From: Chthoniobacterales bacterium
GTDB taxonomy: Bacteria; Verrucomicrobiota; Verrucomicrobiia; Chthoniobacterales; UBA10450
Length of the DNA: 64,000 nt
NCBI GenBank assembly: GCA_038230335.1
Contig: JBBRNL010000003.1
Coordinates: 59,085 to 123,084 of the forward strand
Direction of reading: 5' to 3'
The notes below the pieces were generated by a model. The model did no database searches. It saw nothing but the letters and a program-made list of their open reading frames with translations, and was not told where the DNA came from. A program made the position numbers and the translations under genes. How positions within the stretch are numbered: position 1 is the first letter of the stretch; every line of letters starts with the position of its first letter. Below are positions 24,252 to 44,516 of this stretch, one piece after another.

Positions 24252-25019
24252 ATGATTCAACGAAAAGAATTTTTGGTCGATCCGTGTTCATCTGTGGCTC
24301 GAATTCTTTTGCAGTCGCCCCTGAGGCCCGCGCTCGAGCGTGCCTTGCTCGTTACGTGTCTCGCGGCCTCAGCCATGGCGGGCGAGCCCAACAGGGTTCG
24401 TTATGTCGCTATTGGTGACTCCTATTCCATCGGGGAAGGAGCTTCTCCTAACGAATCGTGGCCGGCCTTACTGACCCGCCACCTGAACGAGCAAGGCTTG
24501 CGCGTCGACCTCGTGGCCAATCCATCGCGCACGGGTTGGACGACGCAACAGGCGATCGATCGCGAACTTCCTGTCATGGTCAACGCCGGCCCGAACTTTG
24601 CGACACTCCAGATCGGTGTGAATGATTGGGTGCAGGGCGTGACGGCCGAAGACTTCCGCAAACGCTTTATTCTGCTCGTCGATCGAATGCTTGAGGTGCT
24701 TGGAAACAAAGATCACTTGCTCGTCGTAACCATCCCCGACTTCGGGGTCACGCCAACCGGTGCGCATTACGCGCGTGGACGCGACATTTCCGCCGGCCTC
24801 ACCGCATTCAACCAGGTGATTATGGAAGAGGCGAGAAAACGCGGCCTCCGCACAGTCGATGTTTTCGACCTGAGCAAGCGGATGCATGAGGACCTGTCCT
24901 TGCGGGCCTCCGACGGATTGCATCCTTCGGCCAAAGAGTACGCGAAATGGGAGAAAGTAATTTTCCCGGTTACGCTCGAATTGATCAAGAATGAGCGATC
25001 GATTGAGACCAATCACTGA
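24252..25019 (+). CDS. SGNH/GDSL hydrolase, exported
   Basis: Block I is YVAIGDSYSIGEG, followed by GVNDW and a DGLHPS catalytic block. The start is uncertain: a dispersed-repeat half-site lies in the first 60 nt, and an in-frame TTG sits at 24345. Confidence 0.8.
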   Translation: MIQRKEFLVDPCSSVARILLQSPLRPALERALLVTCLAASAMAGEPNRVRYVAIGDSYSIGEGASPNESWPALLTRHLNEQGLRVDLVANPSRTGWTTQQAIDRELPVMVNAGPNFATLQIGVNDWVQGVTAEDFRKRFILLVDRMLEVLGNKDHLLVVTIPDFGVTPTGAHYARGRDISAGLTAFNQVIMEEARKRGLRTVDVFDLSKRMHEDLSLRASDGLHPSAKEYAKWEKVIFPVTLELIKNERSIETNH

Positions 25020-25050: not shown

Positions 25051-25122
25051 TGGGCGGTGAGGGTTTCGAACCCCCGACCCTCTCGGTGTAAACGAGACGC
25101 TCTACCGCTGAGCTAACCGCCC
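25051..25122 (-). tRNA. tRNA-Val (anticodon TAC)
   Basis: The reverse complement folds by hand into a cloverleaf: acceptor GGGCGGT/ACCGCCC, D-arm GCTC-AGCGGTA-GAGC, anticodon arm TCTCG-TTTACAC-CGAGA and T-arm GGGGG-TTCGAAA-CCCTC. The discriminator is A and no CCA is encoded. Confidence 0.9.
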
Positions 25123-25584
25123 GCATGAGGTAATCGGAGAAGTGATAGGTGATTCGCGGCCCTGACAAGAGGAAGTTCCGCGACTGCGTTCCAAATTAGC
25201 GCTTCCGGTCTGCAGGTCTGAAGTTCGGTGGTTGGCGTCGAAACCGGCTTTTGGCTGCCAGTCCAGACACATCCAGTTGCCGCAGGGACCTGCCCAACTT
25301 GTCGGGCCGAACCTAGCACAGGAGGACTCATTTTGAGCCCGTTCCTTGGCCATGATTTGCAGCAAGGTGGCGCCAATTCGAGGCCAAGAAAACCAAGGAT
25401 TATTTTCCTTTCGAACATTTTTCACGAACAACTGAGGGCAGGTACACCTAGGTAAAACGGCAGATGCAGGCGCGATTAGCGACAACCCGGAAGACTCCCT
25501 GGCGTAACGGATGCTTAGAGGGGTTCGAAATGGTGGGAGACTGCCTGAGCCGGCCAGAATAGCGCTGGCAAGTCGGTCACCGCT

Positions 25585-25779
25585 TTGGTAAAACTAACGA
25601 AGGACATCAAACCCATGACTAACCAATCCAAAAAAAGCAAGAAACTCCGGTTGAATAAAGAAACATTGAAAGACCTGGGTGATCGAAACGCGGGGCAAGT
25701 TAAAGCGGGAAATAAGGCCGCTAATGCGGTGGCCCCGGGAGCTTCAAACAGAGGAACCGCAGTACAGACGATGTGTTAA
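25585..25779 (+). CDS. lanthipeptide-type RiPP precursor peptide, copy 1 (core ends ...NRGTAVQTMC)
   Basis: ORF 25585..25779 (TTG), with an alternative ATG at 25615 (54 aa). The leader KLRLNKETLKDLGDRNAGQVKAG is followed by a Ser/Thr-containing core with a single C-terminal Cys. It lies directly upstream of the LanD-LanC and LanB genes. Confidence 0.75.
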   Translation: MVKLTKDIKPMTNQSKKSKKLRLNKETLKDLGDRNAGQVKAGNKAANAVAPGASNRGTAVQTMC

Positions 25780-25852
25780 GCATGGTCGCGACTTAACATC
25801 CAAACGATAATCAATTCTCTGTTAACAAAAACTAACTAACGAATAGACCCAC

Positions 25853-26017
25853 ATGACAAAGTTGACCAAAAAAAGCCCAAAACTCCGGTTGAATAAAGAA
25901 ACATTGAAAGACCTGGGTGATCGAAACGCGGGGCAAGTTAAAGCGGGTAATAAGGCCGCTAATGCGGTGGCCAGGGGAGGTTCAAACGGAGCGACCGCAG
26001 TACAGACGATGTGTTAA
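25853..26017 (+). CDS. lanthipeptide-type RiPP precursor peptide, copy 2 (54 aa, not in the ORF track)
   Basis: Hand translation gives MTKLTKKSPKLRLNKETLKDLGDRNAGQVKAGNKAANAVARGGSNGATAVQTMC*. It is a tandem paralogue of copy 1 with a 238-bp period. The leader DNA is nearly identical and the core diverges. Confidence 0.75.
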   Translation: MTKLTKKSPKLRLNKETLKDLGDRNAGQVKAGNKAANAVARGGSNGATAVQTMC

Positions 26018-26301
26018 GCATGGTCGCGACTTAATATCCAAACGATCAGCAATTCTCTGTTATCGGAAGGCCGACCGCTGGAGGTAAATCCACAAACGTG
26101 CCGATGATGTCCCGAGGCGGCGACGGCGCACAGGTTTTGTGCTAAGACGATTAGCATTAGGCGAACTTCATGCGGGGGTTTCCCGTCGCCACCAACCGAT
26201 GAGTTGCTAGCGGTGCGGTGAGTACACAACTGCACCGCCAGAGTGCGGGGCAGATTAAATAGCCAAACCGGGTTGGATGGCGTTAGGCTTTGGCCGTATC
26301 A

Positions 26302-28467
26302 ATGCCATCGCGGTCTGACTCCATACGTTACCTGCGCAACCCGACGACGGTTGCGATCGGACAGCGCGATCGGTTCATCTTCATTCGCGAGGATGGCCAC
26401 GTCGTTGTCGACGAGGCAGGAAAACCGGATTTTGTTTCGGCGATTCTAGGCGCGCTCGGCGAGCCCCGTTCCGTGGCTGAGGTGGCACGGGCTGTTCGTC
26501 ACCCAAACGGCCGAGTTCGCTCGATTGTCCGGCAACTGGTCCGCGCGAAAGCCGTCGCCGTCGGATCGGAAAAGCTCCTTTTTACCGACGGTCCGGGAAT
26601 CTCCCGTCGGGCAAAGCCATGTCGGTGTTTGGTGCTCGGCATTTCCGGAGCTGCGCAAGCCATGTCCATCCTCTCTTTGGTGGCGAAACTGCACGAGGTT
26701 TTCGCGGAGCAGATTGATATCATCCTGACCGATGCGGCGCGGCAATTTGTGCAGCGAGAGGCCTTTTCGGCTCTTGGCGTCGAAGTCTGGCAGGATTTAT
26801 TCGAGCGGAGAGAACTCGTCAAAGTCCCGCACATGTATCTGGCCAAACGAGCCGATTTGGTCGCGATCATTCCTGCCAGCGCCCATACAATTCATCGGCT
26901 GGCGGCGGGCGAATGCTCTGATTTGTTATCGGTGGTGGTAGCGGCAACCCGGGCGCCCGTCGTGGTGGCCCCGAGCATGAATCCCAACATGCGGCACCAT
27001 CCCTCCGTGCAGCGTAATATTGCGCAGCTCCGCGCGGATGGCGTTTACGTGATTGAGCCCGCCTGGGGAATCGAGTTGAGTCGCGGCGAGAGCAGGCACA
27101 CTTCTCTGGGCAGCATCGGGGTCAACGAAAAGAATGCGCCACTTGCGTTCGAGACGGTGATGAGATTTGCCGGGCAAATAAAACGTTCTCGATCCACCTC
27201 CGCCGCGGAGTGCTGGCAGCCAATTTTAGAAAAGAATGCGCGCAGCGCGGCGCTCGAGGCGATTCAAGCGATCGCTCACCAACTGCGAAGGGTGCGGCTG
27301 AAAGACGCAAGCCTTGGCTTCGGCCACGCTGGGGTAGCCCTCTTTTTCGCCTACTTGCGTCGGGCGCGTCTGGACATCGGCGGGAACGATAGTGCGCAAA
27401 GATGGATCAACCGCGCCACCGAAACCGTCGGTTCGACCAGAATGTCTGCTTCCCTCTTCGGTGGGTTTACCGGGGTGGCGTGGGTTATGGAGCACCTTTA
27501 CGGCTGGCCTGGAGATACGGAAAAATCCGATCCGAACGGAGCCATCGACGAAGCCTTGAAAGGCTATCTTCGGTTATCCCCCTGGCGAAGAGATTACGAT
27601 CTGATCGAAGGATTGGTTGGTTTCGGAGTATACGCTTTGGAACGAATGCCGCGGCCCAGCGCCATTGATTGCTTGAACCTGGTGGTGGAACGCTTGAATG
27701 AAATTGCCGTGCGGACCGGTGAAAAAGTCACATGGTTTACTCCCCCCAAATTACTTCCGCCCTGGCAGCGAAAGGTTTGTCCCGAAGGCTATTTTAATCT
27801 GGGCGTGGCCCACGGCGTGCCCGGCGTAATCGCTTTCCTTGGTCAAGTTTCTGCGATTAACGACCAGCGTCTGACCACTCGCGTTCTCGCTCGCTCGCTC
27901 CTTAACGGAGCCGTGGCATGGCTGCTCGAGCAAAGGTCTAGCGAAGGTTCCGGCGTGGTGTTTCCCAACTGGATTGGTCCCAAAGTTCACGACATGCCAC
28001 CTCGCCTTGCCTGGTGTTACGGCGATTTTGGCGTTGCGTGCGCTTTGCTGGCAGCCGCGCGTTGCGCGGGGAAGAAGACGTGGGAAGACGCCGCCCTCGT
28101 GATTGCTCACCGTGTCGACCGGCGCCACAGAGAGGTGTCCGATATCCCCTACTGCGGGCTCTGTCACGGTGTGGCGGGCGGGGGACATATGTTTAATCGT
28201 CTCTTTCAAGCCACGGGCGAGCGCGCTTTCAAAAAGGCGGCGCAGAATTGGTTTTCTCGGACATTGGAATTGCGCCGGCCTAACGGTGGCATCGCGGGCT
28301 TTCACTTTTTGCGCCACGAGGGAAAAGCCGGGACTCGCTGGCTCAATGATCCTGGCCTGGTCGAAGGCGCTGCTGGGGTAGGACTGGCCTTGCTTGCGGC
28401 TGTATCGAGTGTCGAACCGTTGTGGGACCGTACCATGCTCTTGTCGATTCCTCCTCGAAATCAATGA
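26302..28467 (+). CDS. fusion protein: N-terminal ~105-aa domain + HFCD flavoprotein (LanD/EpiD-like Cys decarboxylase) + LanC-like lanthionine cyclase
   Basis: ORF 26290..28467 (TTG), with ATG at 26302. The HFCD motifs are LVLGISGAAQA, VPHMYL, IIPASAHTIHRLAAGECSDLL and VVAPSMNPNMRHHP (compare EpiD PASANT and PxMNxxMW). The LanC motifs are SLFGGFTGVAW, GVAHGVPGV, WCYGDFG and GLCHGVAGG (the Zn ligands Cys and Cys-His). Confidence 0.85.
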   Translation: MPSRSDSIRYLRNPTTVAIGQRDRFIFIREDGHVVVDEAGKPDFVSAILGALGEPRSVAEVARAVRHPNGRVRSIVRQLVRAKAVAVGSEKLLFTDGPGISRRAKPCRCLVLGISGAAQAMSILSLVAKLHEVFAEQIDIILTDAARQFVQREAFSALGVEVWQDLFERRELVKVPHMYLAKRADLVAIIPASAHTIHRLAAGECSDLLSVVVAATRAPVVVAPSMNPNMRHHPSVQRNIAQLRADGVYVIEPAWGIELSRGESRHTSLGSIGVNEKNAPLAFETVMRFAGQIKRSRSTSAAECWQPILEKNARSAALEAIQAIAHQLRRVRLKDASLGFGHAGVALFFAYLRRARLDIGGNDSAQRWINRATETVGSTRMSASLFGGFTGVAWVMEHLYGWPGDTEKSDPNGAIDEALKGYLRLSPWRRDYDLIEGLVGFGVYALERMPRPSAIDCLNLVVERLNEIAVRTGEKVTWFTPPKLLPPWQRKVCPEGYFNLGVAHGVPGVIAFLGQVSAINDQRLTTRVLARSLLNGAVAWLLEQRSSEGSGVVFPNWIGPKVHDMPPRLAWCYGDFGVACALLAAARCAGKKTWEDAALVIAHRVDRRHREVSDIPYCGLCHGVAGGGHMFNRLFQATGERAFKKAAQNWFSRTLELRRPNGGIAGFHFLRHEGKAGTRWLNDPGLVEGAAGVGLALLAAVSSVEPLWDRTMLLSIPPRNQ

Positions 28468-31400
28468 CGAAAACCCGCGATTATTCCGCGTTCCAAGTCG
28501 CGGACTTTTTCGTTCTGCGGACACCGCTGCTCTCTTTCGACGAATTTTTGAAATGGAGCGATGGCTTGAAGGCACCCCAGGCGATGAGCGATCCCGTGAG
28601 TTTGCCCGAAGCGATCTCGGCCGATCGGCAGAAACTTGGGCTCGCCCTGCGCGAAATCATGTCGCGGCCGGAGGTGCGGGAAGCGCTCTTCGTTGCATCG
28701 CCTGAACTGGAAGGAACTTTTTCTTTGTGGAACGGCCAGCCGGAGACCGAGCGAAGCCGTGGCATCGACCTATCGATGGCACGATATTTCTCCCGCATGA
28801 CGGGCCGGGCCACGCCTTTCGGCCTGTGCGCCGGTTGTTCCGTGGGAAAGATCGGTGCAGTCGCAGCTCTTAGGATCGCCGAGCGATCGAGCTGGAAAAA
28901 GCACACCCAGCTGAGTGTGGAATATTTGTCCGCCCTGGCCGATTCGTTAGGGAGCGATGCAACCGTGCGGGACGCTTTCCTCTATTGGCCGAATTCCAGC
29001 CTGTATCACATGGCTGGCCATTTTCGCTATCTGGAGCGATTCAAAAAGGCCGGCAAAGCGCACTCTTATCATCTGGTGGCGGTGGAAGATTCGGAAGCTC
29101 TTACTGAGATTCTTCAACGAGCCGGGAATGGCGCGCTTTTTTCCGATCTGGTTTCCTCCGTGACAACCGCTGAGATCTCTTCCGCCGAGGCCGCGGAATA
29201 TGTGCAGGACCTGATCGACAACCAAATCCTGATTCCAGATATCATCCCACCGGTCACGGGAGAGGAACCAGCCGAAGTTTTCGTGCAGCGCCTAAGAGAG
29301 CATCTTCCCACAAGTCCGGTGGCCGCCAAGATAGCTGCGGTCAACGAGAGTCTGGCCGCCATGGACCGCACGGGAGTGGGCACCTCCCCGCAGGCCTATC
29401 GCGACGTTGCAACTCTTCTTCAGTATCTCCCGGTCGCAGCCGAACTATCGCACTTGTTTCACATCGACATGATCAAGCCGGCGGGTGAGCTGACGTTGAG
29501 CCAGGCTGTCTTGAACGAGTTGCTGCACGGCGTAAGAATTCTTCATTCCCTAGCCCGGCCAGATGCAACTGCCGCTCTTCTGACGCCGTTTCGCCAGGCT
29601 TTCGTTGACCGTTACGACCGGGAGGCGGTGCCGATCCTGGAGGCGCTGGATGAAGAAGCCGGAATTGGATTCCCAGTCTCGCCCACCTTCGATGCAGCTT
29701 CTCCTTTGCTTAAAGGACTTACGTTTTCGAATCCGGTTTCTCCGACTCAGCCGTGGTCTACCCGCGAGAAATTCCTGCTCCATAAGTTAGGGGAGGCGCT
29801 CAGCCAAGGCGCTCAGGAGATCGTTCTCGACGAGCACGAACTGGACGAAATCGCTCACCCGACGCGATTCGATCTGCCGGATGCATTCGCGGTTATGGCC
29901 AGAGTAGCGGCCGCTTCGGAAGCCGCGATGAATGAAGGCGATTTCCGCGTCTTCGTCACCGGTGTCAATGGACCCTCCGGCGCATTCTTTTTCGGTAGAT
30001 TCTGCCATGCGGCGCCCGATCTTAGCGCGCACGTCCGCGAACACCTGCGCGCGGAGGAACAATTGCGCCCGCACGCCATTTTCGCCGAGATTGCATACTT
30101 GCCTGACGGTCCTTTTGGAAATCTGGCCGTGCGACCAGTCCTGCGGGAGCATGAGATTCCCTGCTTCACGCCTTCCGGCGTAAGTCACGATAAGCAAATC
30201 GAGCTGGCTGATTTATTTCTCAGGGTTCGCGGGGATCGTGTAATTCTTTTTTCAAAGAGCAGGGATCGCGAAGTGATTCCGCGGTTGACCAGCGCTCATG
30301 ACTTCGACCGACAAGGCCCGCCTCTGTATCGTTTCCTTTGTGCCCTGCAAGATCAGGGGACAGCGCCGCTCGGATGGGATTGGGGAGATCTGTGGGGCGC
30401 GCCATTCCTTCCCCGGGTCGTTTGCGGGAAAATCGTTTTGGCTCGTGCGCGCTGGTTGGTCACCGCCAAAGAGATCGTTCCGCGTCAACCGGATCCCGCC
30501 GCATCCTTCGCCGCCTTGCAGAAATGGAGGGCCGACCACCGGGTCTGCCGATTTGTCGCCTTGGTAGAGGGCGAAGGCGATCAGGCACTTGCCTTGGATC
30601 TCGACAACGTTATTTGCGTTGAGATTTTGCTCCGAAAACTGAAGCCCGGTGTGGAACTCGCCCTTCTCGAGATGTTTCCCAGTCCGGATCTGCTGCCCGT
30701 GTCTGCACCGGACGGTCGTTACACGCACGAGTTAATTGTCCCTTTCGTGCGGACGCGATTAACCGGTGTCCCGATTGTGCCGTCCTCAGCCAGGATTAAT
30801 CAGGGTCTTACCGTCGGGGCGCGGGTCTTCCCACCCGGTTCCGAATGGCTTTACGCAAAACTCTATTGCGGCCCGGTGACGGTGGATCGTTTGCTCCGCG
30901 GAATGGTCGCTCCGCTCGTAAAGGAATTCGCCGGCGCCGGCGCGATCGACCGCTGGTTTTTCATTCGCTACCGCGATCCGGATTGGCATTTGCGCCTTCG
31001 GTTTCACGGAAAGATTCGCGATTTGCAGGAGACGGTGCGCCCGGCCCTTGAGAAAGCAGCGGAGTCTTTGCTCGATGGCCGCGAAATCAGACGCGTTCAA
31101 TTCGATACCTATGAACGTGAGATTGAGCGATACGGGGGATTGGAGGCGATGCTCTTGAGCGAGCAACTGTTTCAGGCCGACAGCGAGGCGATTCTGTCGC
31201 TTCTCGATGGACTCGCACAATCTGGCGCAGATGCGGATCAGCGTTGGCGGGTAGCCTTGCTCGGCTTAGACAGATTATTGTCTGACTTTGAATTCAATCT
31301 CCCAACCAAGCGCGCGATCGTCGAAAATTGGAGGTTGGATCTGGCTCGGGAGTTCCAGGTGAATGCCGGGATGAAAAAAGAATTAAGCGATCGATTCCGC

Positions 31401-31694
31401 CAGGAGCGCAAAGCCCTCGAAGGGTGGCTTTCAAAACCATCAGAGGCGAGCGAGGCGTCCGCCATGAGCGAAAAAGTATTTCGACAACGATCGGGAGAGA
31501 TTATTCCGATCGTCGCGAGCCTGAAGACAATTGAAAAAACGAATGGGTTGACCTCCCCGCTCTCAATGCTGGCCGCTTCCTACCTGCACATGCACGTCAA
31601 CCGCCTCCTTATCTCTACTCATCGGGCACACGAATTGGTTTTGTACGACTTCCTTGTGCGCCTCTATGATTCGAAGATCGCTCTTGCTCGTTGA
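28464..31694 (+). CDS. lanB: full-length class I lanthipeptide dehydratase (LanB: glutamylation + elimination domains)
   Basis: ORF 28422..31694. The ATG at 28464 overlaps the upstream stop (ATGA). The N-terminus FQVADFFVLRTPLLSFDEF is typical of Lant_dehydr_N. The C-terminal WLYAKLYCG...IDRWFFIRYRDPDWHLRLRFHG is typical of the SpaB_C/elimination domain. The product is 1076 aa. Confidence 0.9.
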   Translation: MTKTRDYSAFQVADFFVLRTPLLSFDEFLKWSDGLKAPQAMSDPVSLPEAISADRQKLGLALREIMSRPEVREALFVASPELEGTFSLWNGQPETERSRGIDLSMARYFSRMTGRATPFGLCAGCSVGKIGAVAALRIAERSSWKKHTQLSVEYLSALADSLGSDATVRDAFLYWPNSSLYHMAGHFRYLERFKKAGKAHSYHLVAVEDSEALTEILQRAGNGALFSDLVSSVTTAEISSAEAAEYVQDLIDNQILIPDIIPPVTGEEPAEVFVQRLREHLPTSPVAAKIAAVNESLAAMDRTGVGTSPQAYRDVATLLQYLPVAAELSHLFHIDMIKPAGELTLSQAVLNELLHGVRILHSLARPDATAALLTPFRQAFVDRYDREAVPILEALDEEAGIGFPVSPTFDAASPLLKGLTFSNPVSPTQPWSTREKFLLHKLGEALSQGAQEIVLDEHELDEIAHPTRFDLPDAFAVMARVAAASEAAMNEGDFRVFVTGVNGPSGAFFFGRFCHAAPDLSAHVREHLRAEEQLRPHAIFAEIAYLPDGPFGNLAVRPVLREHEIPCFTPSGVSHDKQIELADLFLRVRGDRVILFSKSRDREVIPRLTSAHDFDRQGPPLYRFLCALQDQGTAPLGWDWGDLWGAPFLPRVVCGKIVLARARWLVTAKEIVPRQPDPAASFAALQKWRADHRVCRFVALVEGEGDQALALDLDNVICVEILLRKLKPGVELALLEMFPSPDLLPVSAPDGRYTHELIVPFVRTRLTGVPIVPSSARINQGLTVGARVFPPGSEWLYAKLYCGPVTVDRLLRGMVAPLVKEFAGAGAIDRWFFIRYRDPDWHLRLRFHGKIRDLQETVRPALEKAAESLLDGREIRRVQFDTYEREIERYGGLEAMLLSEQLFQADSEAILSLLDGLAQSGADADQRWRVALLGLDRLLSDFEFNLPTKRAIVENWRLDLAREFQVNAGMKKELSDRFRQERKALEGWLSKPSEASEASAMSEKVFRQRSGEIIPIVASLKTIEKTNGLTSPLSMLAASYLHMHVNRLLISTHRAHELVLYDFLVRLYDSKIALAR

Positions 31695-31958
31695 GCATTC
31701 TCACGCAGTAGGCGCCGTGCCTGATGACGCAACTACCGCGTGCGCCTGCTGCCTTGAGGGCAAAAGGAACTAACGAGTATCATGATTGCCGGCGGCAACG
31801 GCTGAGCCTGTTCAATCTTCGAGAACACCCGGTTATTATCATCTTGTATTTTGGCCGAGTGGGCGGTATTTGCATAACTAATCACCGCAGGGTCTGTCGC
31901 TGTTCTCGAGCCTTTGCCCCTGTATTAATCGAAAGAGAAAGAGAAAGAGAAGGTAAGT

Positions 31959-32117
31959 ATGAAAAAGCCAATCAAATCCCCGAAAGGGACGAAGATCAAA
32001 GATATGGTGCCGAGGAAAGATGCCAAAGGTGGCGGCTCCAAGGCTCCCGGCGGCGTGGTCTCACCGAGCGGAATCCAAGCGAATCACAACGAAACCTTCG
32101 TTTGCGACGGTTGCTGA
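31959..32117 (+). CDS. candidate third precursor peptide (52 aa, ends ...NHNETFVCDGC), conflicts with the 5' end of the TPR ORF
   Basis: Hand translation gives MKKPIKSPKGTKIKDMVPRKDAKGGGSKAPGGVVSPSGIQANHNETFVCDGC*. A purine-rich SD-like gagaagg lies 6 nt upstream. It has a KGG-type leader end and a C-terminal Cys. It overlaps ORF 32020..33108 by 98 nt in another frame. Confidence 0.4.
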   Translation: MKKPIKSPKGTKIKDMVPRKDAKGGGSKAPGGVVSPSGIQANHNETFVCDGC

Positions 32118-33108
32118 GCGGAAGGCGGAAAATTTACGGCGCTGCGCCGATCGTGCGTGGGAGGGTGGGCAGTTCGCAAAAGCGGAGGCTTTTTACAATC
32201 GCAGCATTGGTGAGCTGAAGATATGCGTCGCGGGCTCCTGTCACGTTCGCACCTATTCAGGGTTGGGGAATCTGTACCGCTTTCTCGGGCGGTATCGTGG
32301 GGCGGAGTTGTCCCTGAGAACGGCTCTTCGCGCAGCGCTTGGCACTTTCGGCGATAGGGCGCAGGAGACCTGTGCTGTCCGCAACGACTTGGCGGTCTTA
32401 TTTAAGTATACGGGCCGCTTCCGTGAAGCAGCGGCTATTTTCCATCGTTTGTTGAAACTATCCACTTCGCCGAGGGCTGTGGAATTTTTAGAGGTCGCGA
32501 CCATTTATCATAATCTCGGTGGCCTCGAGCATGCCCGTGGCTCGTTCGAGCGGGCCGAGCGGTTCGCGCGTCAGGCAATCGAACTTCGCAAGCAGTCGCA
32601 TGGGCCGAATCACCACGCTGTGGCAGAGGACGCGGTGGCGCTCGGTGCGATCCTGGTCGAGCGCGGGAAATATCCCGAGGCGGAGCGTCTTTATAAAATG
32701 GCACTTCGCACTTTTCGGAGAAAGATCGGTTCCCACCGTTACAATATTGCCGTCGCTTTAAACAACCTGGCTGCTCTTCATCAGGCGCGCGGGGAACTCG
32801 CGACAGCTAAGCGATTCTACATGAAAGCCCTTGCCCTGAAGACGCAGCTCTTTGGTCGGAAACACGTGGATGTCGCGTTAACGCTCAACAACCTCGCTGT
32901 CCTACAGAAAACTCGCGGGGAATGGACGGCAGCGATCAGTTATTACAAGGAGGCGCGCGCAATCTTTGAAGCCGTTCTGCCTCCAGATCATCCGAAGCTC
33001 ATCAAGTGCCGCGCAAACCTGGCCAAGCTTCTGCATGAACAGGCATTGCGAAACATTCGGCCGCCGGCAAGGAAAGACAAAAAAGAGAGAGCCTGCGCCA
33101 TGCGATGA
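32020..33108 (+). CDS. tetratricopeptide-repeat protein (TPR_12 / kinesin-light-chain-like repeats)
   Basis: The repeats include YSGLGNLYRFLGRYRGAE, YHNLGGLEHARGSFERAERFARQAIEL, LNNLAALHQARGELATAKRFYMKALAL and LNNLAVLQKTRGEWTAAISYY. The first ~30 aa (Pro/Ala/Arg-rich) may not be translated, so the true start is uncertain. Confidence 0.8.
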   Translation: MPKVAAPRLPAAWSHRAESKRITTKPSFATVAERKAENLRRCADRAWEGGQFAKAEAFYNRSIGELKICVAGSCHVRTYSGLGNLYRFLGRYRGAELSLRTALRAALGTFGDRAQETCAVRNDLAVLFKYTGRFREAAAIFHRLLKLSTSPRAVEFLEVATIYHNLGGLEHARGSFERAERFARQAIELRKQSHGPNHHAVAEDAVALGAILVERGKYPEAERLYKMALRTFRRKIGSHRYNIAVALNNLAALHQARGELATAKRFYMKALALKTQLFGRKHVDVALTLNNLAVLQKTRGEWTAAISYYKEARAIFEAVLPPDHPKLIKCRANLAKLLHEQALRNIRPPARKDKKERACAMR

Positions 33109-33390
33109 TTCACGCCTAGCGATTTGATGACGACTTTCTGCGCGCGTGTCCTTCTTCCAGATACCGGATCGCATCAGGAACCTCACATTCGGACGGTAAT
33201 GAGCGAGCGTCTTGCTGCTCTGAAAGCGCAGAAGGACCTTGCCTTCTCAACCGACGCCACCATTTCGGCTTTGGCCTAGATGGCTTATGCAGCCCTCTCA
33301 GAGTAATTTATCCAGCCCGTTGCGTACTCGACTTCGTATTAGGGCCACCCGTTTTGCCCCCCTGGCATCTGAAAACCAGTCCACTCGTGT

Positions 33391-33440
33391 CCTTACTAGT
33401 CCAGTCGATTGCGTCGGACTAAGTAGGTGGTTTTTCTTTT
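33391..33440 (+). terminator. possible rho-independent terminator downstream of the TPR gene
   Basis: The hairpin is ccttactagtcc ... ggactaagtagg (about 11 bp with one bulge), followed by tggtttttctttt. Confidence 0.4.
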
Positions 33441-33500
33441 AGCGACCACCCCCGTCGCGACCTGTCCACATCTGTCCTAACGAGTCACAAAACGCAAAAA

Positions 33501-33542
33501 CTCGGTGTAAACGAGACGCTCTACCACTGAGCTAACCGCCCG
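33501..33542 (-). repeat. orphan copy of the 5' half (positions ~1-41 plus 1 upstream nt) of tRNA-Val(TAC); att-like direct repeat
   Basis: It is 42 nt and matches 25082..25123 at 41 of 42 positions (ctcggtgtaaacgagacgctctaccRctgagctaaccgcccg). No T-arm or 3' acceptor strand follows. Confidence 0.85.
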
Positions 33543-33742
33543 AAGCTTTTCTGCTGAAGAGATTTAACGTGCTTCAGCGGCTGATGCATTAAGGGGAGGG
33601 TCGACCGTTTTGCCCCCCTGAGCGTGTCCGAGAGTCCACTCCTGGCCAGAAAAGTCTGGGCTGAACGATCCGAGAATCGGCGAGCGCGTCACCTAAAATC
33701 GCCCAACTACCAGGGAAAGATACGGCGGCTAAATCGCCGACC

Positions 33743-34276
33743 TCAGTTGATGACGCGGTAAAATCGCCGCGAAAAACCCGTTACGAGCACCTTGCCGTTT
33801 GCCAAAAGGGTCGCCGTGTGACCGATGCGGACCTGCATCAGAGCGCCGGTCGTCGCCCAAGTCCCCGTCGCCGGGTTGTATCGTTCCGCGGTGTTGAGCA
33901 AAGCGGAAAAATCGGTTTGTCCGCCAGCGACCAGCACCTTCCCATCCGCCAGCAGGGTAGCGGTGTGGAAGGCGCGCGGAGCGCTCAGCGGGCCAGTTGG
34001 GCTCCCGATTGCCGTCGTGGAATCGAACAGTTCGACGCTGTCCAGATAACCACCGGCGGGCGGTTGGCCGCCAGCGAGCAGGACCCTGCCATTTTGCAGC
34101 AAGCTGGCGGTGTGCCCGGAGCGCCTCTCCGCCAGCAGGCCGGTCGATCGAAACGAAGCGGCGCTGGCGGATCGTTGGATGGCCAGTCCGAGAATCAATG
34201 CGGCGAACGCGACAAAGAGAACGCGAATCTTGAGTTTCATGCTGAGGGCCGAGATTTTTGTAGATAGAGTTGTCAC
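33743..34276 (-). CDS. Kelch-repeat protein, apparently 3'-truncated (only ~3 blades)
   Basis: A signal peptide is followed by the repeats GHTASLLQNGRVLLAGG, FHTATLLADGKVLVAGG and GHTATLLANGKVLVTG. The sequence then degenerates (FSRRFYRVIN*) in the middle of a blade. Confidence 0.6.
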   Translation of the reverse strand: MTTLSTKISALSMKLKIRVLFVAFAALILGLAIQRSASAASFRSTGLLAERRSGHTASLLQNGRVLLAGGQPPAGGYLDSVELFDSTTAIGSPTGPLSAPRAFHTATLLADGKVLVAGGQTDFSALLNTAERYNPATGTWATTGALMQVRIGHTATLLANGKVLVTGFSRRFYRVIN

Positions 34277-34773
34277 TTAGCGAGGTCCAAAGTTCCGGCG
34301 CATCGGGCTGAATATATAGTTTCGCCGGAGACTTGTCGCACTTTTCGACTTCAAACTTCCAAATCCTGGGCGGGGCCAGCTACATCGCGTAACCAGCAAA
34401 GGTTCCGCGCTCGCCTGGCCTTACCCGCCATGCTGTCGGCCAGTGCGCACGTTGGTTTCGACGTGTTTCCTACGCCCGCAGCTACCACGGGCTCACTCGG
34501 TTTTTCCCCTTTCCAGTGCGGCGCGGCTTCAGTCCATTACCCATGTTCACCTTCGAGTCCGTTCAAGTCACATTGCAGTCTCGCGTCCGCGCTACCGCAC
34601 CTTCACGAAAGATATCGACCGCGCAGCTCAAGACTTCCCATGCGACGTTCACCTCCAGCCCAGCCAGTGATATGATCAATACGCCTGACCAGGCGGTCGG
34701 CTTCAATTTCGGCGGGTAGAGGGTTGTAACCGGAGCCGGATGTACGCTAGGGAATGTCGAGGATGATTGGTCA

Positions 34774-36861
34774 ATGAAAACTAGCAATGTTTTTTGCGCG
34801 AGCACAGTTCTCCTGCCTGCGTTGCTTTTTATTCCCTGTCATCTTTTGCTTGCGAAAGATAAGCCGATCCATCCGCCGGGCGACCATTTGACCCCTTCGC
34901 CGCTGTGCGCCTGGACGGATCAAGGCGTGATGAGAGGTGAAAAGCCGGACACGCAAATAATCGTGTCGAAGACCCATGTTGTACTCGTAACGACTGGTAG
35001 CTTGGGTTTCTTTGACAAGAAAGGAAACCGACTGGCGGTCGCATCGACTACGGATTTCTTCACTAACAACAAAACAAGAATGCCCGACGGCACGTTGATG
35101 TCGGATTTCCTCGTCGCGCATAAAGGTGAAAAACCGGTGTGGGGTTTTGGCGATTGCAAGGCCCTGTACGATCCGTATCGCAACCGTTTTTGGTTCCTCG
35201 CCACTTTTAACAACGCTTATCCAGGAGATGGCCAGATGTTCTGGGCCGTTGGTGTTTCAGATAGCAGTGATCCGACCCAGGGCTGGCGTACTTTTGTTCT
35301 GCCGGCTCATCGACGCGACGACAAACGCTATACCAATTCCGATTTTCCGATGCTCGGACTGGATAAGGAAGCGTTTTACGTTTCGGTCTGCGTTCTGATT
35401 GGCAATCCGGAGGTTCGCGCCCAGAACTACTGGTATGTGCTCGCCTTGAACGCCGACGACGTGGCCGCCGGAAAGGATCTGGCTTCAGTAAAAACAGCTG
35501 AACTCGATCACTGGCCCGATCCCGAAACTCATAAACCACTCGCGCGCGGAATTCTAATGCCAGCGATTCCAACCGGACTCAAAGAGACAAAGTCGGGAAT
35601 GAAGTTCGCCGGCGCTCTGGGTAAAAACACCGGCATTTGGTCGTTACGAAATCCGTTCAGTCTGCATCCGGAGATCCGAACGTGGACAGTGCCGATCAGC
35701 TCCCGCGGCCCGGGTTCAGCCGGCGTAAAACAACGACAGAAAGGAACGCCGGAACTCGCGCCGATTGCGTTGGGCGGTGCGATTGTGAGCGTGACCCAAT
35801 CGGGCGACGATCTGTATCTCGTTTCGCAAGACGTCATCCAAGGCGCAGATAAACACCCTCATACCGCCGTTCGCTTCAGTCAGGTGATATGTCCTGGGCC
35901 ATTCGGTCAGCCTCCCCGCGTCACCAAGGACATTAAGTATGGCGCCCAATCGCCCGAGGAACGGGACGCGAACCTGAACTACACCATTCCTTCCGCCATG
36001 ATTAACAAAAACGGCGATGCCATCGTCGTCGAAAACAGTGTAGGCCCGAGCGTCCATCAGGAAGCGCGCGCTTCGGCGATTTATCACGACAGCAGCTCGG
36101 CTGATTGGAGCGCACTAATTAAGACGGGCGAGGGCGCGAATACCGGCGGATGGGGCGATATTGCGAAGGCATCTCTGGATCCTTCCGATAACATCGGCAT
36201 CTGGGTTGCCACCCAATACGGCGCCGGTCATCACGCGCACCTCGCCATCGGCAAATTTTTGTCGGGACAAACAAGCCGCATCTCCGATGGCTGGCCCGGA
36301 TTATGGGCCAACACTGTCCAGGCCGCCACGGTGTGGCCTAACGGCAAACTTTATTTTTTCCGTGGCAGCGAATACATCCGCTACGACGTCGCGAGTAGCA
36401 AAGCAGATCCCGGATATCCGCAAACGATCGCAAAGGCATGGCCCGGGATTTGGCCGGAGGGATTCGATGCTGTGGCGGCCTGGCCTAACGGGAAGGCCTA
36501 CTTCTTTCGCGGCGATCAATATCTCCGCTACGACATCAGAACGGATAAAGTGGACGATGGCTATCCCAAGCCAATCACTTACGCCTGGTCCGGAGTATGG
36601 AAGGATGGAAAGATCGACGCGGTCGTTGTCTGGCCTAACGGGAAGGCCTATTTTTTCCGCGGCGATCAATACATTAGTTACGATATCAAGGCGGACAAGG
36701 CGGACGCGGGGTTCCCCAGGCCGATCGCGAATGATTGGCCCGGGCTTTGGGTCGATGGAGTCGATGCCGGAGTCGCTCTTCCGAGCGGAGCCGTCTATTT
36801 CTTTAAACGAAGCGATGTTTTCCGCGGCAAAGCAGCGGAGCTGCCCGCTGCCGCCCCTTAA
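34774..36861 (+). CDS. secreted protein with unknown N-terminal region and C-terminal four-blade hemopexin-like repeat domain
   Basis: Signal peptide. From about nt 36285 to 36830 there are four repeats of W-P-N-G-K-x-Y-F-F-R-G-x-x-Y-x-x-Y-D ... D-x-G-Y-P-x-x-I ... W-x-G-x-W, which is the hemopexin/MMP-type blade motif. Confidence 0.8.
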   Translation: MKTSNVFCASTVLLPALLFIPCHLLLAKDKPIHPPGDHLTPSPLCAWTDQGVMRGEKPDTQIIVSKTHVVLVTTGSLGFFDKKGNRLAVASTTDFFTNNKTRMPDGTLMSDFLVAHKGEKPVWGFGDCKALYDPYRNRFWFLATFNNAYPGDGQMFWAVGVSDSSDPTQGWRTFVLPAHRRDDKRYTNSDFPMLGLDKEAFYVSVCVLIGNPEVRAQNYWYVLALNADDVAAGKDLASVKTAELDHWPDPETHKPLARGILMPAIPTGLKETKSGMKFAGALGKNTGIWSLRNPFSLHPEIRTWTVPISSRGPGSAGVKQRQKGTPELAPIALGGAIVSVTQSGDDLYLVSQDVIQGADKHPHTAVRFSQVICPGPFGQPPRVTKDIKYGAQSPEERDANLNYTIPSAMINKNGDAIVVENSVGPSVHQEARASAIYHDSSSADWSALIKTGEGANTGGWGDIAKASLDPSDNIGIWVATQYGAGHHAHLAIGKFLSGQTSRISDGWPGLWANTVQAATVWPNGKLYFFRGSEYIRYDVASSKADPGYPQTIAKAWPGIWPEGFDAVAAWPNGKAYFFRGDQYLRYDIRTDKVDDGYPKPITYAWSGVWKDGKIDAVVVWPNGKAYFFRGDQYISYDIKADKADAGFPRPIANDWPGLWVDGVDAGVALPSGAVYFFKRSDVFRGKAAELPAAAP

Positions 36862-36884
36862 GGCGAGTTAGAACTGTTGTAACC

Positions 36885-37166
36885 GTGGCGCGATGTGCTG
36901 TAAGTAAGGCGGCGATGAAAGATCGACATCCGGAAACAGCCAAAGTCATGGGCCGGCTGGCCGGCGTGTTTGTCTATCTACTTTGGGCGAACCTTTCGTT
37001 AGCGCGTGTCCCGATCGCCCAACCTCTCGCGCCGGAAAGAGTCGCCGCCGTGGATGCTGCGGTGCAGGCGGAGATGCAGAAGGAGCAAGTTGTTGGGATG
37101 GCGGTCGGTATCATCGATCCGGGAAAATTTTCGACGCTGATTTACGCAGTCCCGGTGAAGAAGTGA
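36885..37166 (+). pseudogene. N-terminal fragment of a serine hydrolase (beta-lactamase-fold) gene
   Basis: A signal-like MGRLAGVFVYLLWANLSLA is followed by VAAVDAAVQAEMQKEQVVGMAVGIIDPGK. This resembles the first ~60 aa of class-C beta-lactamase-fold proteins, but the ORF stops before the SxxK region. Confidence 0.35.
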
Positions 37167-37600
37167 TGAGAGTTGTTCCGGCCTCTCTAATTTTCGGGAT
37201 AATGATCGCGGCCGCGGCCATTGGGCAGGAGGTGCAGCAACCCGCGGCCGGTTCGCCCGCGCGCAAAGCCATCCTGGATGGATTGCGCGAGAACGAAGTG
37301 GTGCGGAAACTTAGCGCGGAATGGAAGGCAAGAATTGTCTTCAGCCATGTCGCCGTCCGCCAGGCAAAAGATTGGGCGTGGGTCGTCGCTTCTCCGCAAA
37401 GCGAGGATGAGAAACACATCATCGAACCGCTTACCAGCGTCATGCGCGAAAAGGTCGGCCACTGGCAGGTGGTGGAATTTATCTCGGACGAAGTTGCGCC
37501 GGCCGACAATCCGGAAGTAGCTTATCGCAGTTGGCGCTCGCAATTCATCGGGCGGCATCCCGACTGCCCGGCGAGGATATTTCCCGAGAAATTCGATTAG
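37166..37600 (+). CDS. hypothetical secreted protein
   Basis: ORF 36983..37600. The ATG at 37166 (MRVVPASLIFGIMIAAAAIG) overlaps the preceding stop (TGATG). Confidence 0.5.
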   Translation: MRVVPASLIFGIMIAAAAIGQEVQQPAAGSPARKAILDGLRENEVVRKLSAEWKARIVFSHVAVRQAKDWAWVVASPQSEDEKHIIEPLTSVMREKVGHWQVVEFISDEVAPADNPEVAYRSWRSQFIGRHPDCPARIFPEKFD

Positions 37601-37602
37601 CA

Positions 37603-38616
37603 ATGAGTCACCCAACCAACCTGAATAATATGTCGATCCAAAAGATCATTCCGCTCCTCTTCGTCCTCGGTGGCTTATCCACCGCATTCGGTTCCGATCC
37701 CATCACCGTCGACATCCCCGGTGCCAAAGACAATCCGTTGCTGAAGCGCTATGAGGGCTCAGTTATCTTCCAGTATTCGCAAAAGGAGTTCGATGAGTAC
37801 TCGATGGCGCTGGGGAAGGGATTGAATCCTTCCGGCGGCGGCAAGTCGAATGAGAAAGAACAAACGGTCGAAGGCAAAGTCACCCGTATCTCCTATTTTG
37901 CTCCGAACGGGCGCTCCACCCTGGAGGTTTTCCGGAACTATGAGAACGACCTGAAGGCCAAGGGATTTCAAACCCTCTTCAGCGCCAGCAAGGAAGACTT
38001 GGGCTACGATTTTCAAGGCCGTTACGCCGGCATCTACTCTCAGATCTTCGAATACTCCGACTTCAACTCCCGCTATGTCGCAGCCAAGCTTTCCCGTCCG
38101 GAAGGCGATGTTTACGCGACGGTGTTTGTTACTGGCTACACCAACGGGACCACCGCCGATGTTAAGTTGGAGAAAAATCAAACCATCGTGCAGGTGGACA
38201 TCGTCGAATCCAAGCCGATGGAAGAAAAAATGGTCAGCGTGACCGCCGAGAAAATGGCCTCGAGCCTGCAGGACACCGGCCGCGTCGCGCTCTACGGGAT
38301 TTATTTCGACTTCAGCAAGGACGAAGTAAAACCGGAATCCGCCGCCACCTTGGAGCAAATCGCGAAATTGCTCGGCTCGGATGCGACCATGAAGCTTCTT
38401 GTCACTGGCCATACCGATAACGTCGGCAGCTTTGAATCCAATCGCACGCTGTCCGAACGCCGCGCCCAATCGGTCGTGCGCCAGCTGGTATCGCACTACA
38501 GTATTTCCACCGAGCGGCTGTTTCCGTTCGGGGTCAGCTTTGCCGCGCCCGCCGCGCCTAACGATAGCGAAGAAAATCGCGCCAAGAATCGACGGGTCGA
38601 ACTCGTCCGCATGTAA
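37603..38616 (+). CDS. OmpA-family (peptidoglycan-binding C-terminal domain) protein
   Basis: ORF 37531..38616, with start MSHPTN or MSIQKIIPLLFVLGG. The C-terminal LLVTGHTDNVGSFESNRTLSERRAQSV...NRRVELV is the OmpA_C motif. Confidence 0.85.
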   Translation: MSHPTNLNNMSIQKIIPLLFVLGGLSTAFGSDPITVDIPGAKDNPLLKRYEGSVIFQYSQKEFDEYSMALGKGLNPSGGGKSNEKEQTVEGKVTRISYFAPNGRSTLEVFRNYENDLKAKGFQTLFSASKEDLGYDFQGRYAGIYSQIFEYSDFNSRYVAAKLSRPEGDVYATVFVTGYTNGTTADVKLEKNQTIVQVDIVESKPMEEKMVSVTAEKMASSLQDTGRVALYGIYFDFSKDEVKPESAATLEQIAKLLGSDATMKLLVTGHTDNVGSFESNRTLSERRAQSVVRQLVSHYSISTERLFPFGVSFAAPAAPNDSEENRAKNRRVELVRM

Positions 38617-38620
38617 CCTT

Positions 38621-39100
38621 ATGAAACTATGCTGCTTTATCCTCACCTTGCTCGTTATTCTGGCCACGTTCGTCCGGGCCGACGACCAAAACCGCGCCGG
38701 CAAAATCCTCACGGTCGATCTTGCGCAGAAGATCCTCGGATCTCCGCCGGAATCGAATGCGATGCCTGCCATGCCCGATACCGAAATCGGTAAAACGTGG
38801 GTCAGCCGGATGTCCTACTCGTCGAAAGCGGGCGGCGCGGCCTCCACCGAGATCAGTCTGCTCATTCGTCACGGGGACAGCGCCGACCAGGCGAAGGTCA
38901 TCTTCGAGTCCAGCAAAGCCACCTTCAAGGGCGTCGACGTCGCCGGTCTGGGCGACGCGGCCTACCGCACGCAAACTCCCGCCCAGCTCGACATCCTCAA
39001 GGGTCCAAACTGGCTCATCATTTCCGCCGGAACCGTGCGCGAGCCCAATCCTGCTCTGCAGGAAAAAGCCGCCCGCGAAATTCTTACCAGGCTGCCGTGA
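38621..39100 (+). CDS. hypothetical secreted protein
   Basis: ORF 38399..39100. The realistic start is ATG 38621 (MKLCCFILTLLVILATFVRA). Confidence 0.5.
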   Translation: MKLCCFILTLLVILATFVRADDQNRAGKILTVDLAQKILGSPPESNAMPAMPDTEIGKTWVSRMSYSSKAGGAASTEISLLIRHGDSADQAKVIFESSKATFKGVDVAGLGDAAYRTQTPAQLDILKGPNWLIISAGTVREPNPALQEKAAREILTRLP

Positions 39101-39248
39101 GCGGCGCGCCCATGCGCTTGCCTAACGACTCTTCGCCATTGGACGTTGTGTATGAACTCGAACATTTACTAGAGCGATTAAGCCGGCCCAAGCCAAGGGC
39201 AGGACCGGCCTGGCCGGCTTGTATCTAACAAGCAGGAGTGGCACAACA

Positions 39249-39400
39249 ATGAGCAAGGAAATTGTCTATGTCGGAATGGATGTGGCCAAAGCGTCTCTGG
39301 ATGTGGCCTGGGCGCACAAAAGGTAGCAGGTGCCTAACGATACCGCCGGGAAGAAAGCAGCTCGTGCGGTGGGTAAAATAGATCGACGGTGCGGACGAGC
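39249..39400 (+). mobile_element. decayed IS110-family transposase N-terminal remnant
   Basis: Hand translation gives MSKEIVYVGMDVAKASLDVAWAHKR*, which is the DEDD-transposase N-terminus pattern VG(I/M)DV(A/S)K..LDVA. It continues after the stop and a frameshift as QVPNDTAGKK / QLVRWVK (N-D-x-x-G ... L-x-x-W). The rest of the gene is absent. Confidence 0.6.
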
Positions 39401-39586
39401 CGGCTGAGGCGAAGGATGCGGGCGAGGACGAAGGTTCTGATATCCCTTCGGTCGAACAGATCTCAGTGCAGGCGTCGCCGCAGAGCGGCTGGAGATTTCG
39501 CACAGTCTTGATCTGAGACAGAGCCTCCTCGCGGGGGGGGCGCACGATAAAATTTCTCCTTGAGCCAAGACTGCGAAATTTGAGTT

Positions 39587-40600: not shown

Positions 40601-40710
40601 ATGTTCGTTAGTGCTTCGGCTGGCTCATTATCTTAAATGAAGCAGGATTTCGCCGCTTCGCAGCAGGATTGCGGTTGGGGCGAGATCAGACATTCTGGCA
40701 TCGCCACTTG

Positions 40711-44329: not shown

Positions 44330-44480
44330 GATTCAACCTATTGGAGATATCCGGCAGCGCCGCGAAATCCAACACTTATTTATCCCGGCCAGATGGACAA
44401 ACCCGCACCAAAGGTCCCATTCTGGAACGCAGCAAATACCACATGCCTCGCCGGCGGATTAATCCCGGCCCTTCGCAACG

Positions 44481-44516
44481 GCGCGCGCACTCCTACGACT
44501 GAGCTAACCGGCTGCC
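44481..44516 (-). other. tRNA-like fragment (acceptor 5' strand + D-arm only)
   Basis: The reverse complement reads GGCAGCCGGTTAGCTCAGTCGTAGGAGTGCGCGC, with a canonical U8-A9 / GCTC-AG...-GAG(T) D-arm. I could fold no proper anticodon arm or T-arm downstream of it. Confidence 0.3.

Follow-up and report, generated by a model that had tools for sequence, protein, structure and literature searches.

The window analysed here, a 64-kb stretch of the genome of a Chthoniobacterales bacterium (G000:C3:59085-123084; assembly of 3.42 Mb in 16 contigs), carries a tRNA-Val(TAC) gene whose 5' half recurs as a 42-nt direct repeat on the far side of a lanthipeptide gene cluster, i.e., a cluster for a ribosomally synthesized and post-translationally modified peptide (RiPP). 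We consider it probable that this repeat is the displaced 5' half of the tRNA gene and that it marks a junction within a tandem array of two islands, both devoid of an integrase and both situated on the promoter side of the gene. The best reading of the locus as a whole is an array of non-autonomous cassettes, resembling cis-mobilizable elements (CIMEs), that integrated at the anticodon stem-loop with 5' polarity. As such, the locus belongs to a known kind of element, namely tRNA-targeted integrative islands of CIME-like character that grow by tandem accretion; what is apparently undescribed is the combination of uniform 5' polarity, an att-like module that carries a promoter-like segment, two tRNA targets and no linked recombinase. 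G, C and L numbers are our handles for genomes, contigs and loci, respectively.

The repeat and its target gene

tRNA-Val(TAC) is the only tRNA gene that ARAGORN and Rfam report in the window, and it is the single gene of this specificity among the 46 tRNAs of the 3.42-Mb assembly. The first-pass annotation of this DNA had described a repeat of the tRNA 5' half with one mismatch, and the description is exact: the copies at 25082-25123 and 33501-33542 agree at 41 of 42 positions and comprise tRNA positions 1-41 together with one further base, a pair for which the chance expectation in 64 kb is ~1e-14. The repeat begins within the 3' strand of the anticodon stem, so that it takes in the entire anticodon stem-loop and all of the tRNA lying 5' of that, and the remaining 31-nt 3' part of the tRNA occurs once in the window, with no second copy. 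The fragment at 33501-33542 has the same orientation as the tRNA and lies on its promoter side, i.e., it is a 5' fragment upstream of the gene. A third, decayed tRNA-Val 5' fragment (CTACGACTGAGCTAACCGGCTG, 19 of 22 positions identical) stands at 44493-44514, just before a response-regulator gene and without a promoter segment, and forms the original edge of the array.

Taken outward from the tRNA, the order in the window is a non-coding segment (V), the lan genes, a tetratricopeptide repeat (TPR) gene and an arm that we call X; the 42-nt fragment; a second arm, U, with the rest of island 2; and finally the decayed fragment and the regulator gene (Table 1). The insert between the two copies had been described as island-like and 8.4 kb long; the island-like character holds, and the extent has to be revised to a variable region of ~19.4 kb made up of two tandem islands, the RiPP island (25124-33500) and a second island (33543-44492). 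The 3' side of the tRNA is stable, a GDSL hydrolase gene adjoining tRNA-Val(TAC) in several genera, and the opposite flank is marked by the response regulator, whose homologues in G004, G005, G055 and G068 (81-87% amino acid identity) adjoin the tRNA itself in G005 and a displaced fragment in G004 and G068.

Empty and filled sites in related genomes

tRNA-Val(TAC) was located in the six other genomes of the genus, and the loci having it were fetched. In G005 the tRNA is followed by ~85 nt (termed E) and then by the homologue of the window regulator gene (44569-44964), with no fragment in between; this arrangement is, by the alignment, the empty site for the entire segment from 25124 to ~44500. 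In G004, U and 1.3 kb come after the intact tRNA, and next to these stands a 42-nt 5' fragment joined to E and the regulator gene. Since it is still joined to the ancestral upstream sequence E seen in G005, the G004 fragment is, on this comparison, the displaced resident 5' half, the intact gene having received a new 5' half together with new upstream DNA. A longer array occupies the locus in G002, where the tRNA and U are followed by 3.2 kb, a 42-nt fragment and U, 2.4 kb, and a 19-nt fragment and U, the cargo differing from slot to slot; at the first of these junctions the tRNA runs straight onto the homologue of window positions 33543-33670 (85% identity over 33501-33670).

The joined site that the first-pass annotation had named as a check is thus present, since in G002 the tRNA is connected to the counterpart of what lies to the right of 33542. 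In G005 it is connected to the homologue of the flank at 44570; occurrence of the islands is sporadic and the empty site precise. The same tRNA-side connection to the homologue of 44570 is found in G004, and island 2 is missing from both G004 and G005. A further same-genus genome, G001, carries after the tRNA a different sequence (W), a gene for a 988-aa protein and a homologue of 31733-32260, where the contig ends.

A conserved module around the tRNA half

The displaced repeat copy is embedded in a conserved module of ~350-450 nt in which the tRNA 5' half is flanked on either side by a motif (M, AGGGCCACCCGTTTTGCCCCCCTG) and phased GTCC repeats. The module bounds unrelated cargo in many genera of the family, at tRNA-Val(TAC) as well as at tRNA-Ala(CGC); it was found in at least 12 genera. 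In the window genome M is confined to this locus, where it occurs at 33341 and 33597, i.e., at -196 and +63 relative to tRNA +1, and the GTCC repeats stand at ~-155, -145, -100 to -70, +94 and +104, phased by 10 nt. The X arm is 84% identical in G002, 77% in G104 (another genus), 77% in G055 and ~70% in the tRNA-Ala modules. The U arm aligns over ~200-250 nt in five genera (10 copies aligned) and stands beside full tRNAs and fragments alike. A second left-arm type, common to G068 and G015, suggests that more than one element lineage may exist. No conserved gene was found adjoining the X arm. TPR proteins turn up often in the vicinity of modules (13 of 141), but they share no homology with that of the window.

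On the tRNA strand of the relatives, the first ~50 nt of U contain TTGCAT/TTGCCA-N17-TAAGTC ~20 nt before the tRNA, which we read as promoter-like, and V, on the tRNA strand of this genome, contains a likewise promoter-like TTGTCA-N15-TATCAC ~19 nt before tRNA +1. V is unique to this genome (1 of 355 family genomes) and carries a motif, AGAAGTGATAGGTGA, that resembles the upstream regions of tRNA-Val in other genera at the corresponding position, which hints at a donor from a related lineage. The -35-like hexamer of U at 33584-33589 reads ATGCAT on the plus strand here as against ATGCAA in G002 and G053 (TTGCAT on the tRNA strand), and, speculatively, the promoter left on the orphan tRNA half may have been weakened.

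The block formed by promoter-like segment, tRNA 5' half and X could also be a small RNA gene of the tRNA-half type, its position at an island border being secondary, and the retention of the promoter-like segment, the tRNA-sense T-run right after the anticodon hairpin and the conservation of the block across genera would all agree with this. We nevertheless consider such a gene very unlikely: RNAalifold on the 10 aligned copies gave a weak fold (-15 kcal/mol) in which covariation contributes a positive, hence unfavourable, term and two of 32 pairs are compensatory, Rfam detects the tRNA only, and what is conserved are short repeats phased by 10 nt on both sides, including the stretch upstream of the promoter. 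Because of this weak fold and unfavourable covariation, the arms are read as protein-binding DNA and not as an RNA gene.

A second tRNA target and metagenomic occurrence

Fragments of the 5' type with an identical breakpoint are present in at least nine genomes of at least seven genera, and in the family loci that were fetched all fragments are of this type, 11 from Val and 10 from Ala, with no 3' fragment among them. The Ala fragments came to light in a family-wide search with 33334-33700, which returned whole modules of ~70% identity on contigs other than those of tRNA-Val; eight such module loci were fetched. In G044, G266 and G056 an intact tRNA-Ala(CGC) is followed by U, an island of 6.8-8.2 kb, and X joined to a tRNA-Ala 5' half, which in G044 and G266 is again trailed by U. 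The breakpoint in tRNA-Ala lies at the equivalent position of the anticodon stem, just past the anticodon loop. When metagenome contigs were searched for exact copies of M, 115 contigs, apparently from soil, were retrieved. Full tRNA genes on them number 35 for tRNA-Ala(CGC) and four for tRNA-Val(TAC); of 5' fragments there are 39 from Ala, 31 of which share one start position, and five from Val, and a single apparent 3' fragment was seen. Two targets that share one architecture and one polarity would be hard to explain by chance duplication, and the pattern is what would be expected as the trace of a site-specific system that switched tRNA targets.

These data bear on the first-pass suggestion that the locus is the remnant of a tandem tRNA-Val pair whose copies were separated by inserted DNA. 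Pairs of complete tRNA-Val(TAC) genes at a distance of 7-7.5 kb do exist in two genomes of another genus, G068 (L071 4355, 11589) and G085 (L073 3571, 11121), and would lend themselves to that scenario; within the genus, however, a second complete copy was found at this locus in none of the genomes, the fragments all stop at the same position and are joined to the conserved X arm rather than to a decayed remainder of the tRNA, nothing of the 3' part persists, and tRNA-Ala(CGC) shows the identical pattern, so that we hold this origin to be extremely improbable and have abandoned it. The other origin that had been put forward, a decayed or trans-mobilised element whose attP identity lies on the 5' side, fits the comparative data.

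Two observations on tRNA-Val(TAC) in other genera are recorded here for their own sake. In G068 (L071 4355-11660) a 5' fragment stands between the two complete tRNA genes, joined to a short promoter segment and the response-regulator gene, and a full U arm comes after the second of these genes for tRNA-Val(TAC). In L064-L067, L049 and L056 the upstream region consists of tandem heptad repeats of the GTGAC(N)AGT type ending in GAGTCAAG, which may be a regulatory or promoter array.

Search for a recombinase

As had been stated in the first-pass annotation, the insert contains no integrase: no match to PF00589 (Phage_integrase) was obtained in window 25-45 kb, the six matches of the genome all lying elsewhere, so that no tyrosine integrase is found inside or overlapping the island, and no recombinase or transfer gene is among the Pfam matches in the window islands. 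The tblastn queries were the six tyrosine-recombinase domains of this genome and the integrase of phage contig L154 (see below). No match to the L154 integrase was obtained in the tRNA-Val loci that had been fetched, and the seven queries together, run against the eight module loci, returned only two pseudo-integrase pieces, both in G047 and beside modules. Recombinase families are likewise missing from the top 25 Pfam families listed for sets of 96 and 141 island open reading frames (ORFs), a result that leaves room for single matches and includes no search specific to serine recombinases. A tyrosine recombinase at G000:C3:131720 (~72.6 kb in window coordinates, outside the window) is taken to be resident and not part of the island, because it is syntenic in G004 and G005, where it also lies 25-28 kb beyond the regulator. 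No integrase-bearing master element was found in 355 family genomes or in the 115 metagenome contigs.

What the islands do carry are genes for glycosyltransferases, aldo-keto reductases, MaoC dehydratases, a collagen-like protein, a CHASE2 histidine kinase and a FecR protein, and the smallest of them (1.3 kb, in G004) has room for the arms and one small gene only. Judged by their gene content, the islands are non-autonomous.

Two candidates were discarded. The ORF at L260:5583-6704, considered as an integrase N-terminus, turned out to be a housekeeping gene, with copies in 332 of 355 genomes. An IntI-like recombinase on contig C16 was considered as the partner enzyme, and its homologues in eight genomes are not beside modules or tRNAs. 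The latter gene (C16:864-1478, outside the window) encodes a tyrosine recombinase, apparently of the integron-integrase (IntI) type, on a 15-kb contig; homologues at 64-80% identity occur in many genera of the family, and the C16 locus may be a chromosomal integron. Its relative in metagenome contig L308 is 85% identical over the last 53 residues of the domain and ends in ...GHKDVTTTMIYTHVL...VRSPLD, which we take to be an IntI-type C-terminus.

Relation to known elements

The first-pass annotation had called the polarity unusual, a judgement that holds as to rarity and not as to precedent: of the 3919 islands in the Islander statistics, 3760 have a 3' fragment and 159 (4%) a 5' fragment. Islander islands, which are those of tyrosine integrases that cross over in the anticodon loop, share with the present locus an intact tRNA gene, a cognate end fragment in the same orientation, a breakpoint in the anticodon stem-loop, tandem arrays, sporadic distribution and a precise empty site. 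They differ in that the fragment here is of the 4% class, no integrase lies inside and the element must supply the promoter-side upstream DNA in addition to a portion of the gene; having no integrase gene inside, the locus would be rejected by the integrase filter of Islander.

A second precedent comes from phages. A scan of IMG/VR with a 24-mer of this tRNA gave at least 120 matches and was unspecific until filtered for half-tRNA matches, whereupon six contigs were found to carry the 5' half only. In four of them (L154, L152, L175 and L235) the tRNA-Val(TAC) 5' half stands beside a PF00589 integrase and has the same left boundary, CTCGGTGTAAACGAG; in L154 (4697-8413) it has the integrase gene on one side and those for terminase, portal and capsid on the other, and three contigs related to L154 carry the same integrase at 91-93% identity. 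By this gene context the L154 fragment is clearly a phage attP of 5' polarity. The phages have in common with the window the tRNA, the polarity, the left boundary and a promoter-like sequence after the fragment, whereas they carry their own integrase beside attP, belong to another host lineage (tRNA variant CTACCAACTGAGCTAATCGCCC) and have arms unrelated to X and U. No close homologue of the L154 integrase was found in the window genome (at most 25% identity).

The absence of linked enzymes brings the locus near the CIMEs described among streptococcal families of ICEs (integrative conjugative elements) and IMEs (integrative mobilizable elements) (PMC5704250), which also keep attL and attR, lack integration and transfer genes and occur in tandem at one tRNA-linked site; here the repeat and the conserved arms are retained and such genes are missing. 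CIMEs are, however, recognised by their descent, through decay, from known ICEs or IMEs and sit at the target's 3' end, whereas no integrase-bearing master element was found for the present islands in the family genomes and metagenome contigs covered. The tycheposon islands of Prochlorococcus (bioRxiv 10.1101/2020.12.28.424599) share the tRNA hotspot, partial tRNAs between and inside islands, and the position of the newest material beside the tRNA with decayed remnants farther off; they belong to another host lineage and possess their own tRNA-specific tyrosine recombinases and replication or packaging genes, none of which is found here.

Replacement of the front end of a gene has its parallel outside tRNAs as well. 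Elements that integrate into dusA rebuild the 5' end of their target gene. The dusA-specific integrases (PMC4482086) differ from the present case in that the target is a protein-coding gene and the elements carry their own integrase.

Proposed mechanism and its scope

Under the favoured reading of an array of CIME-like cassettes, circular cassettes would carry an attP-like module composed of a P arm (X), a core and usually a P' arm (U), the core being equal to the 5' portion of the tRNA up to and including the anticodon stem-loop. A site-specific recombinase would cross over within the anticodon stem-loop, so that the 5' half and upstream DNA of the cassette complete the single-copy tRNA and the resident 5' half, together with the upstream region it had before, comes to lie at the far end. 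A series of such events would stack islands with the newest beside the tRNA, and the recombinase would act in trans, in a dependence of the CIME type. In the window the tRNA-proximal slot holds strain-specific class I lanthipeptide cargo whose upstream region, V, is not of the U type. The promoter function of U and V and the order of events are inferred from the DNA; the state of the fragments, the distal one being the most decayed (19/22, promoter lost) and the proximal one the best kept, is as would be expected for growth at the tRNA, and the patchy, possibly foreign cargo (LanB in three of 151 and V in one of 355 family genomes) also counts for this reading.

A wider proposal, which we regard as possible and somewhat doubtful, is that X-core-U modules define an undescribed family of non-autonomous cassettes of PVC-like soil bacteria that an unlinked host recombinase inserts into the anticodon stem-loop of tRNA-Val(TAC) or tRNA-Ala(CGC), each insertion swapping the 5' half and the promoter of the target. 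Were this the case, the logic might, with the same reserve, be likened to that of integrons or of Xer-exploiting elements, with the tRNA front end serving as a general cassette-capture site. If a recombinase indeed acts in trans from elsewhere in the genome, the system would be a cassette-capture system of a new type. Irrespective of this, the locus provides a clean comparative example of the rare 5'-polarity class, in which incoming DNA must bring the promoter of an essential single-copy tRNA, and it indicates that island finders which demand an integrase and expect 3' fragments would miss a family that occurs commonly in soil metagenomes, a single motif search having yielded 115 contigs.

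Age of the repeat and entry of the lan genes

Several observations weigh against the array of integrated cassettes as the full account of the locus. The segment 33334-33669, i.e., the 42-nt copy with both its flanks, is 84% identical to that of G002, a value near that of orthologous genes (coding flanks 77-79%), and the slot of G002 holds other cargo. Because X, fragment and U are shared with a genome of different cargo, the repeat probably predates the lan genes and would not be the mark of their own integration. In G001 the segment 31733-32260 is kept and the tRNA-proximal segment is different, which looks like slot replacement with no new junction; given that segment in G001 and the X-fragment-U block in G002, only 25124-31732 is new in the lineage. 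The RiPP island has an X arm and no U arm beside the tRNA, and consensus promoter and terminator scans of U and V called nothing. The single difference between the repeat copies lies in the D-loop, where both alleles are common in the family, and this single-nucleotide polymorphism was dropped as an uninformative donor marker. No PF00589 match was obtained in or beside the tRNA-Val islands of 13 family genomes including this one, and the seven tblastn queries gave one match in 546 kb of metagenome contigs, the IntI-like C-terminus in L308. Finally, the composition, which the first-pass annotation proposed to profile, departs only mildly from that of the genome, with a GC content of 0.563 against 0.575 +/- 0.010 (8th percentile) and a tetranucleotide distance at the 88th percentile. 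A shift this small is compatible with a donor of similar composition.

From these points an alternative can be built in which one ancient scar was inherited vertically and the DNA of the slot was exchanged by homologous recombination, with no active site-specific system, the lan genes having been acquired in that way. It would account for the near-orthologous divergence from G002, for the sharing of 31733-32260 between this genome and G001 with no extra junction, and for islands without integrases and with a composition near the genome norm. It does not sit well with the same arms being joined at the equivalent anticodon-stem position to two tRNA genes, with several fragments per locus and U copies of different subtypes, with a module that is present in at least 12 genera and yet leaves a clean empty site in same-genus G005, or with phased repeat arrays that resemble recombination arms on both sides, and we deem it unlikely as an explanation of the whole. 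Homologous swapping may still have been the last step, the entry of the lan genes into the cassette array. Two routes can be envisaged: either a V-type cassette integrated at the tRNA and its inner junction was later lost, or the slot was replaced by homologous recombination from a relative, with the tRNA side and the TPR/X side as anchors.

Cargo of the two islands

The segment unique to this genome comprises 25124-31732 only. Within it, a LanB and a LanC adjoined by small putative precursor genes identify a class I lanthipeptide cluster, the precursors being inferred from size, position and tandem duplication only. LanB was found in three of 151 family genomes at up to 46% identity; its best match anywhere (52%) occurs in metagenome-assembled genomes of Chthoniobacteraceae and Verrucomicrobiae, and no tRNA lies near LanB at the seven closest LanB loci fetched. 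Between the repeat copies ~1.2 kb is free of Pfam-supported genes; a 164-aa ORF at 31724-32218 matches no Pfam family, nor do the ORFs in the non-coding stretches. The homologue of 31733-32260 in same-genus G001 aligns at 79-84% (blastn, L042 13290-13988). Island 2 further contains hypothetical proteins. Its four-gene AAA_2/beta-helix cassette (39587-44329) is likewise accessory cargo, since it lies inside an island that is missing from G004 and G005. Because the lanthipeptide cluster and this neighbouring, conserved ATPase cassette occupy a replaceable slot, the cluster is best regarded as cargo that is specific to the strain and open to horizontal exchange.

Table 1. Features of the tRNA-Val(TAC) locus in window coordinates
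Feature	Position	Strand	Basis
GDSL/SGNH hydrolase gene, stable flank on tRNA 3' side	24252-25019	+	Pfam Lipase_GDSL_2 3.4e-23
tRNA-Val(TAC), intact, single-copy target gene	25051-25122	-	ARAGORN; Rfam tRNA 68.5 bits
Direct-repeat copy 1, tRNA positions 1-41 plus one upstream base	25082-25123		repeat search and direct reading
V, non-coding DNA now upstream of the intact tRNA	25124-25584		
Pair of small ORFs resembling precursors (25585-25779, 25853-26017), within a 235-nt tandem duplication	25585-26017	+	no Pfam match
Flavoprotein (LanD-type)-LanC fusion	26290-28467	+	Pfam Flavoprotein 2.9e-22, LANC_like 7e-39
LanB dehydratase	28422-31694	+	Pfam Lant_dehydr_N 2.4e-154, Lant_dehydr_C 2.8e-68
Small-ORF region and TPR gene (32020-33108)	31733-33108	+	Pfam TPR_12 8.6e-46
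X arm, island-distal; motif M 33341-33364; GTCC at 33378, 33388, 33398, 33463, 33473; terminal A-run abuts the tRNA fragment	33334-33500		
Direct-repeat copy 2, putative displaced tRNA-Val(TAC) 5' half (attR-type scar)	33501-33542	-	repeat search and direct reading
U arm, proximal arm of island 2; second M 33597-33620; GTCC pair 33625, 33633	33543-33790		
Island 2, older cargo	33543-44492		Pfam; absent from G005, G004
Kelch fragment in island 2	33743-34276	-	
Hemopexin-repeat protein in island 2	34774-36861		
Two AAA_2 ATPases and beta-helix protein, four-gene cassette in island 2	39587-44329		
Third tRNA-Val 5' fragment, decayed; original array edge	44493-44514	-	
Response-regulator gene, conserved chromosomal flank	44569-44964	-	Pfam Response_reg 3.3e-20

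In G001 the stretch matching window 31938-32123, which holds a 52-aa ORF, is doubled in tandem and adjoins a TPR gene and the gene for the 988-aa protein. As G001 has this pair and is without LanB, small ORF and TPR gene may form a unit independent of the lan genes. Outside the window, the same genome as the window contains a second LanB gene at C2:86361-89576, 46% identical to the window LanB. Also outside the window, at C2:349122-349840, a tyrosine integrase lies just 3' of tRNA-Val(CAC), in the classical arrangement, and is syntenic in G005.

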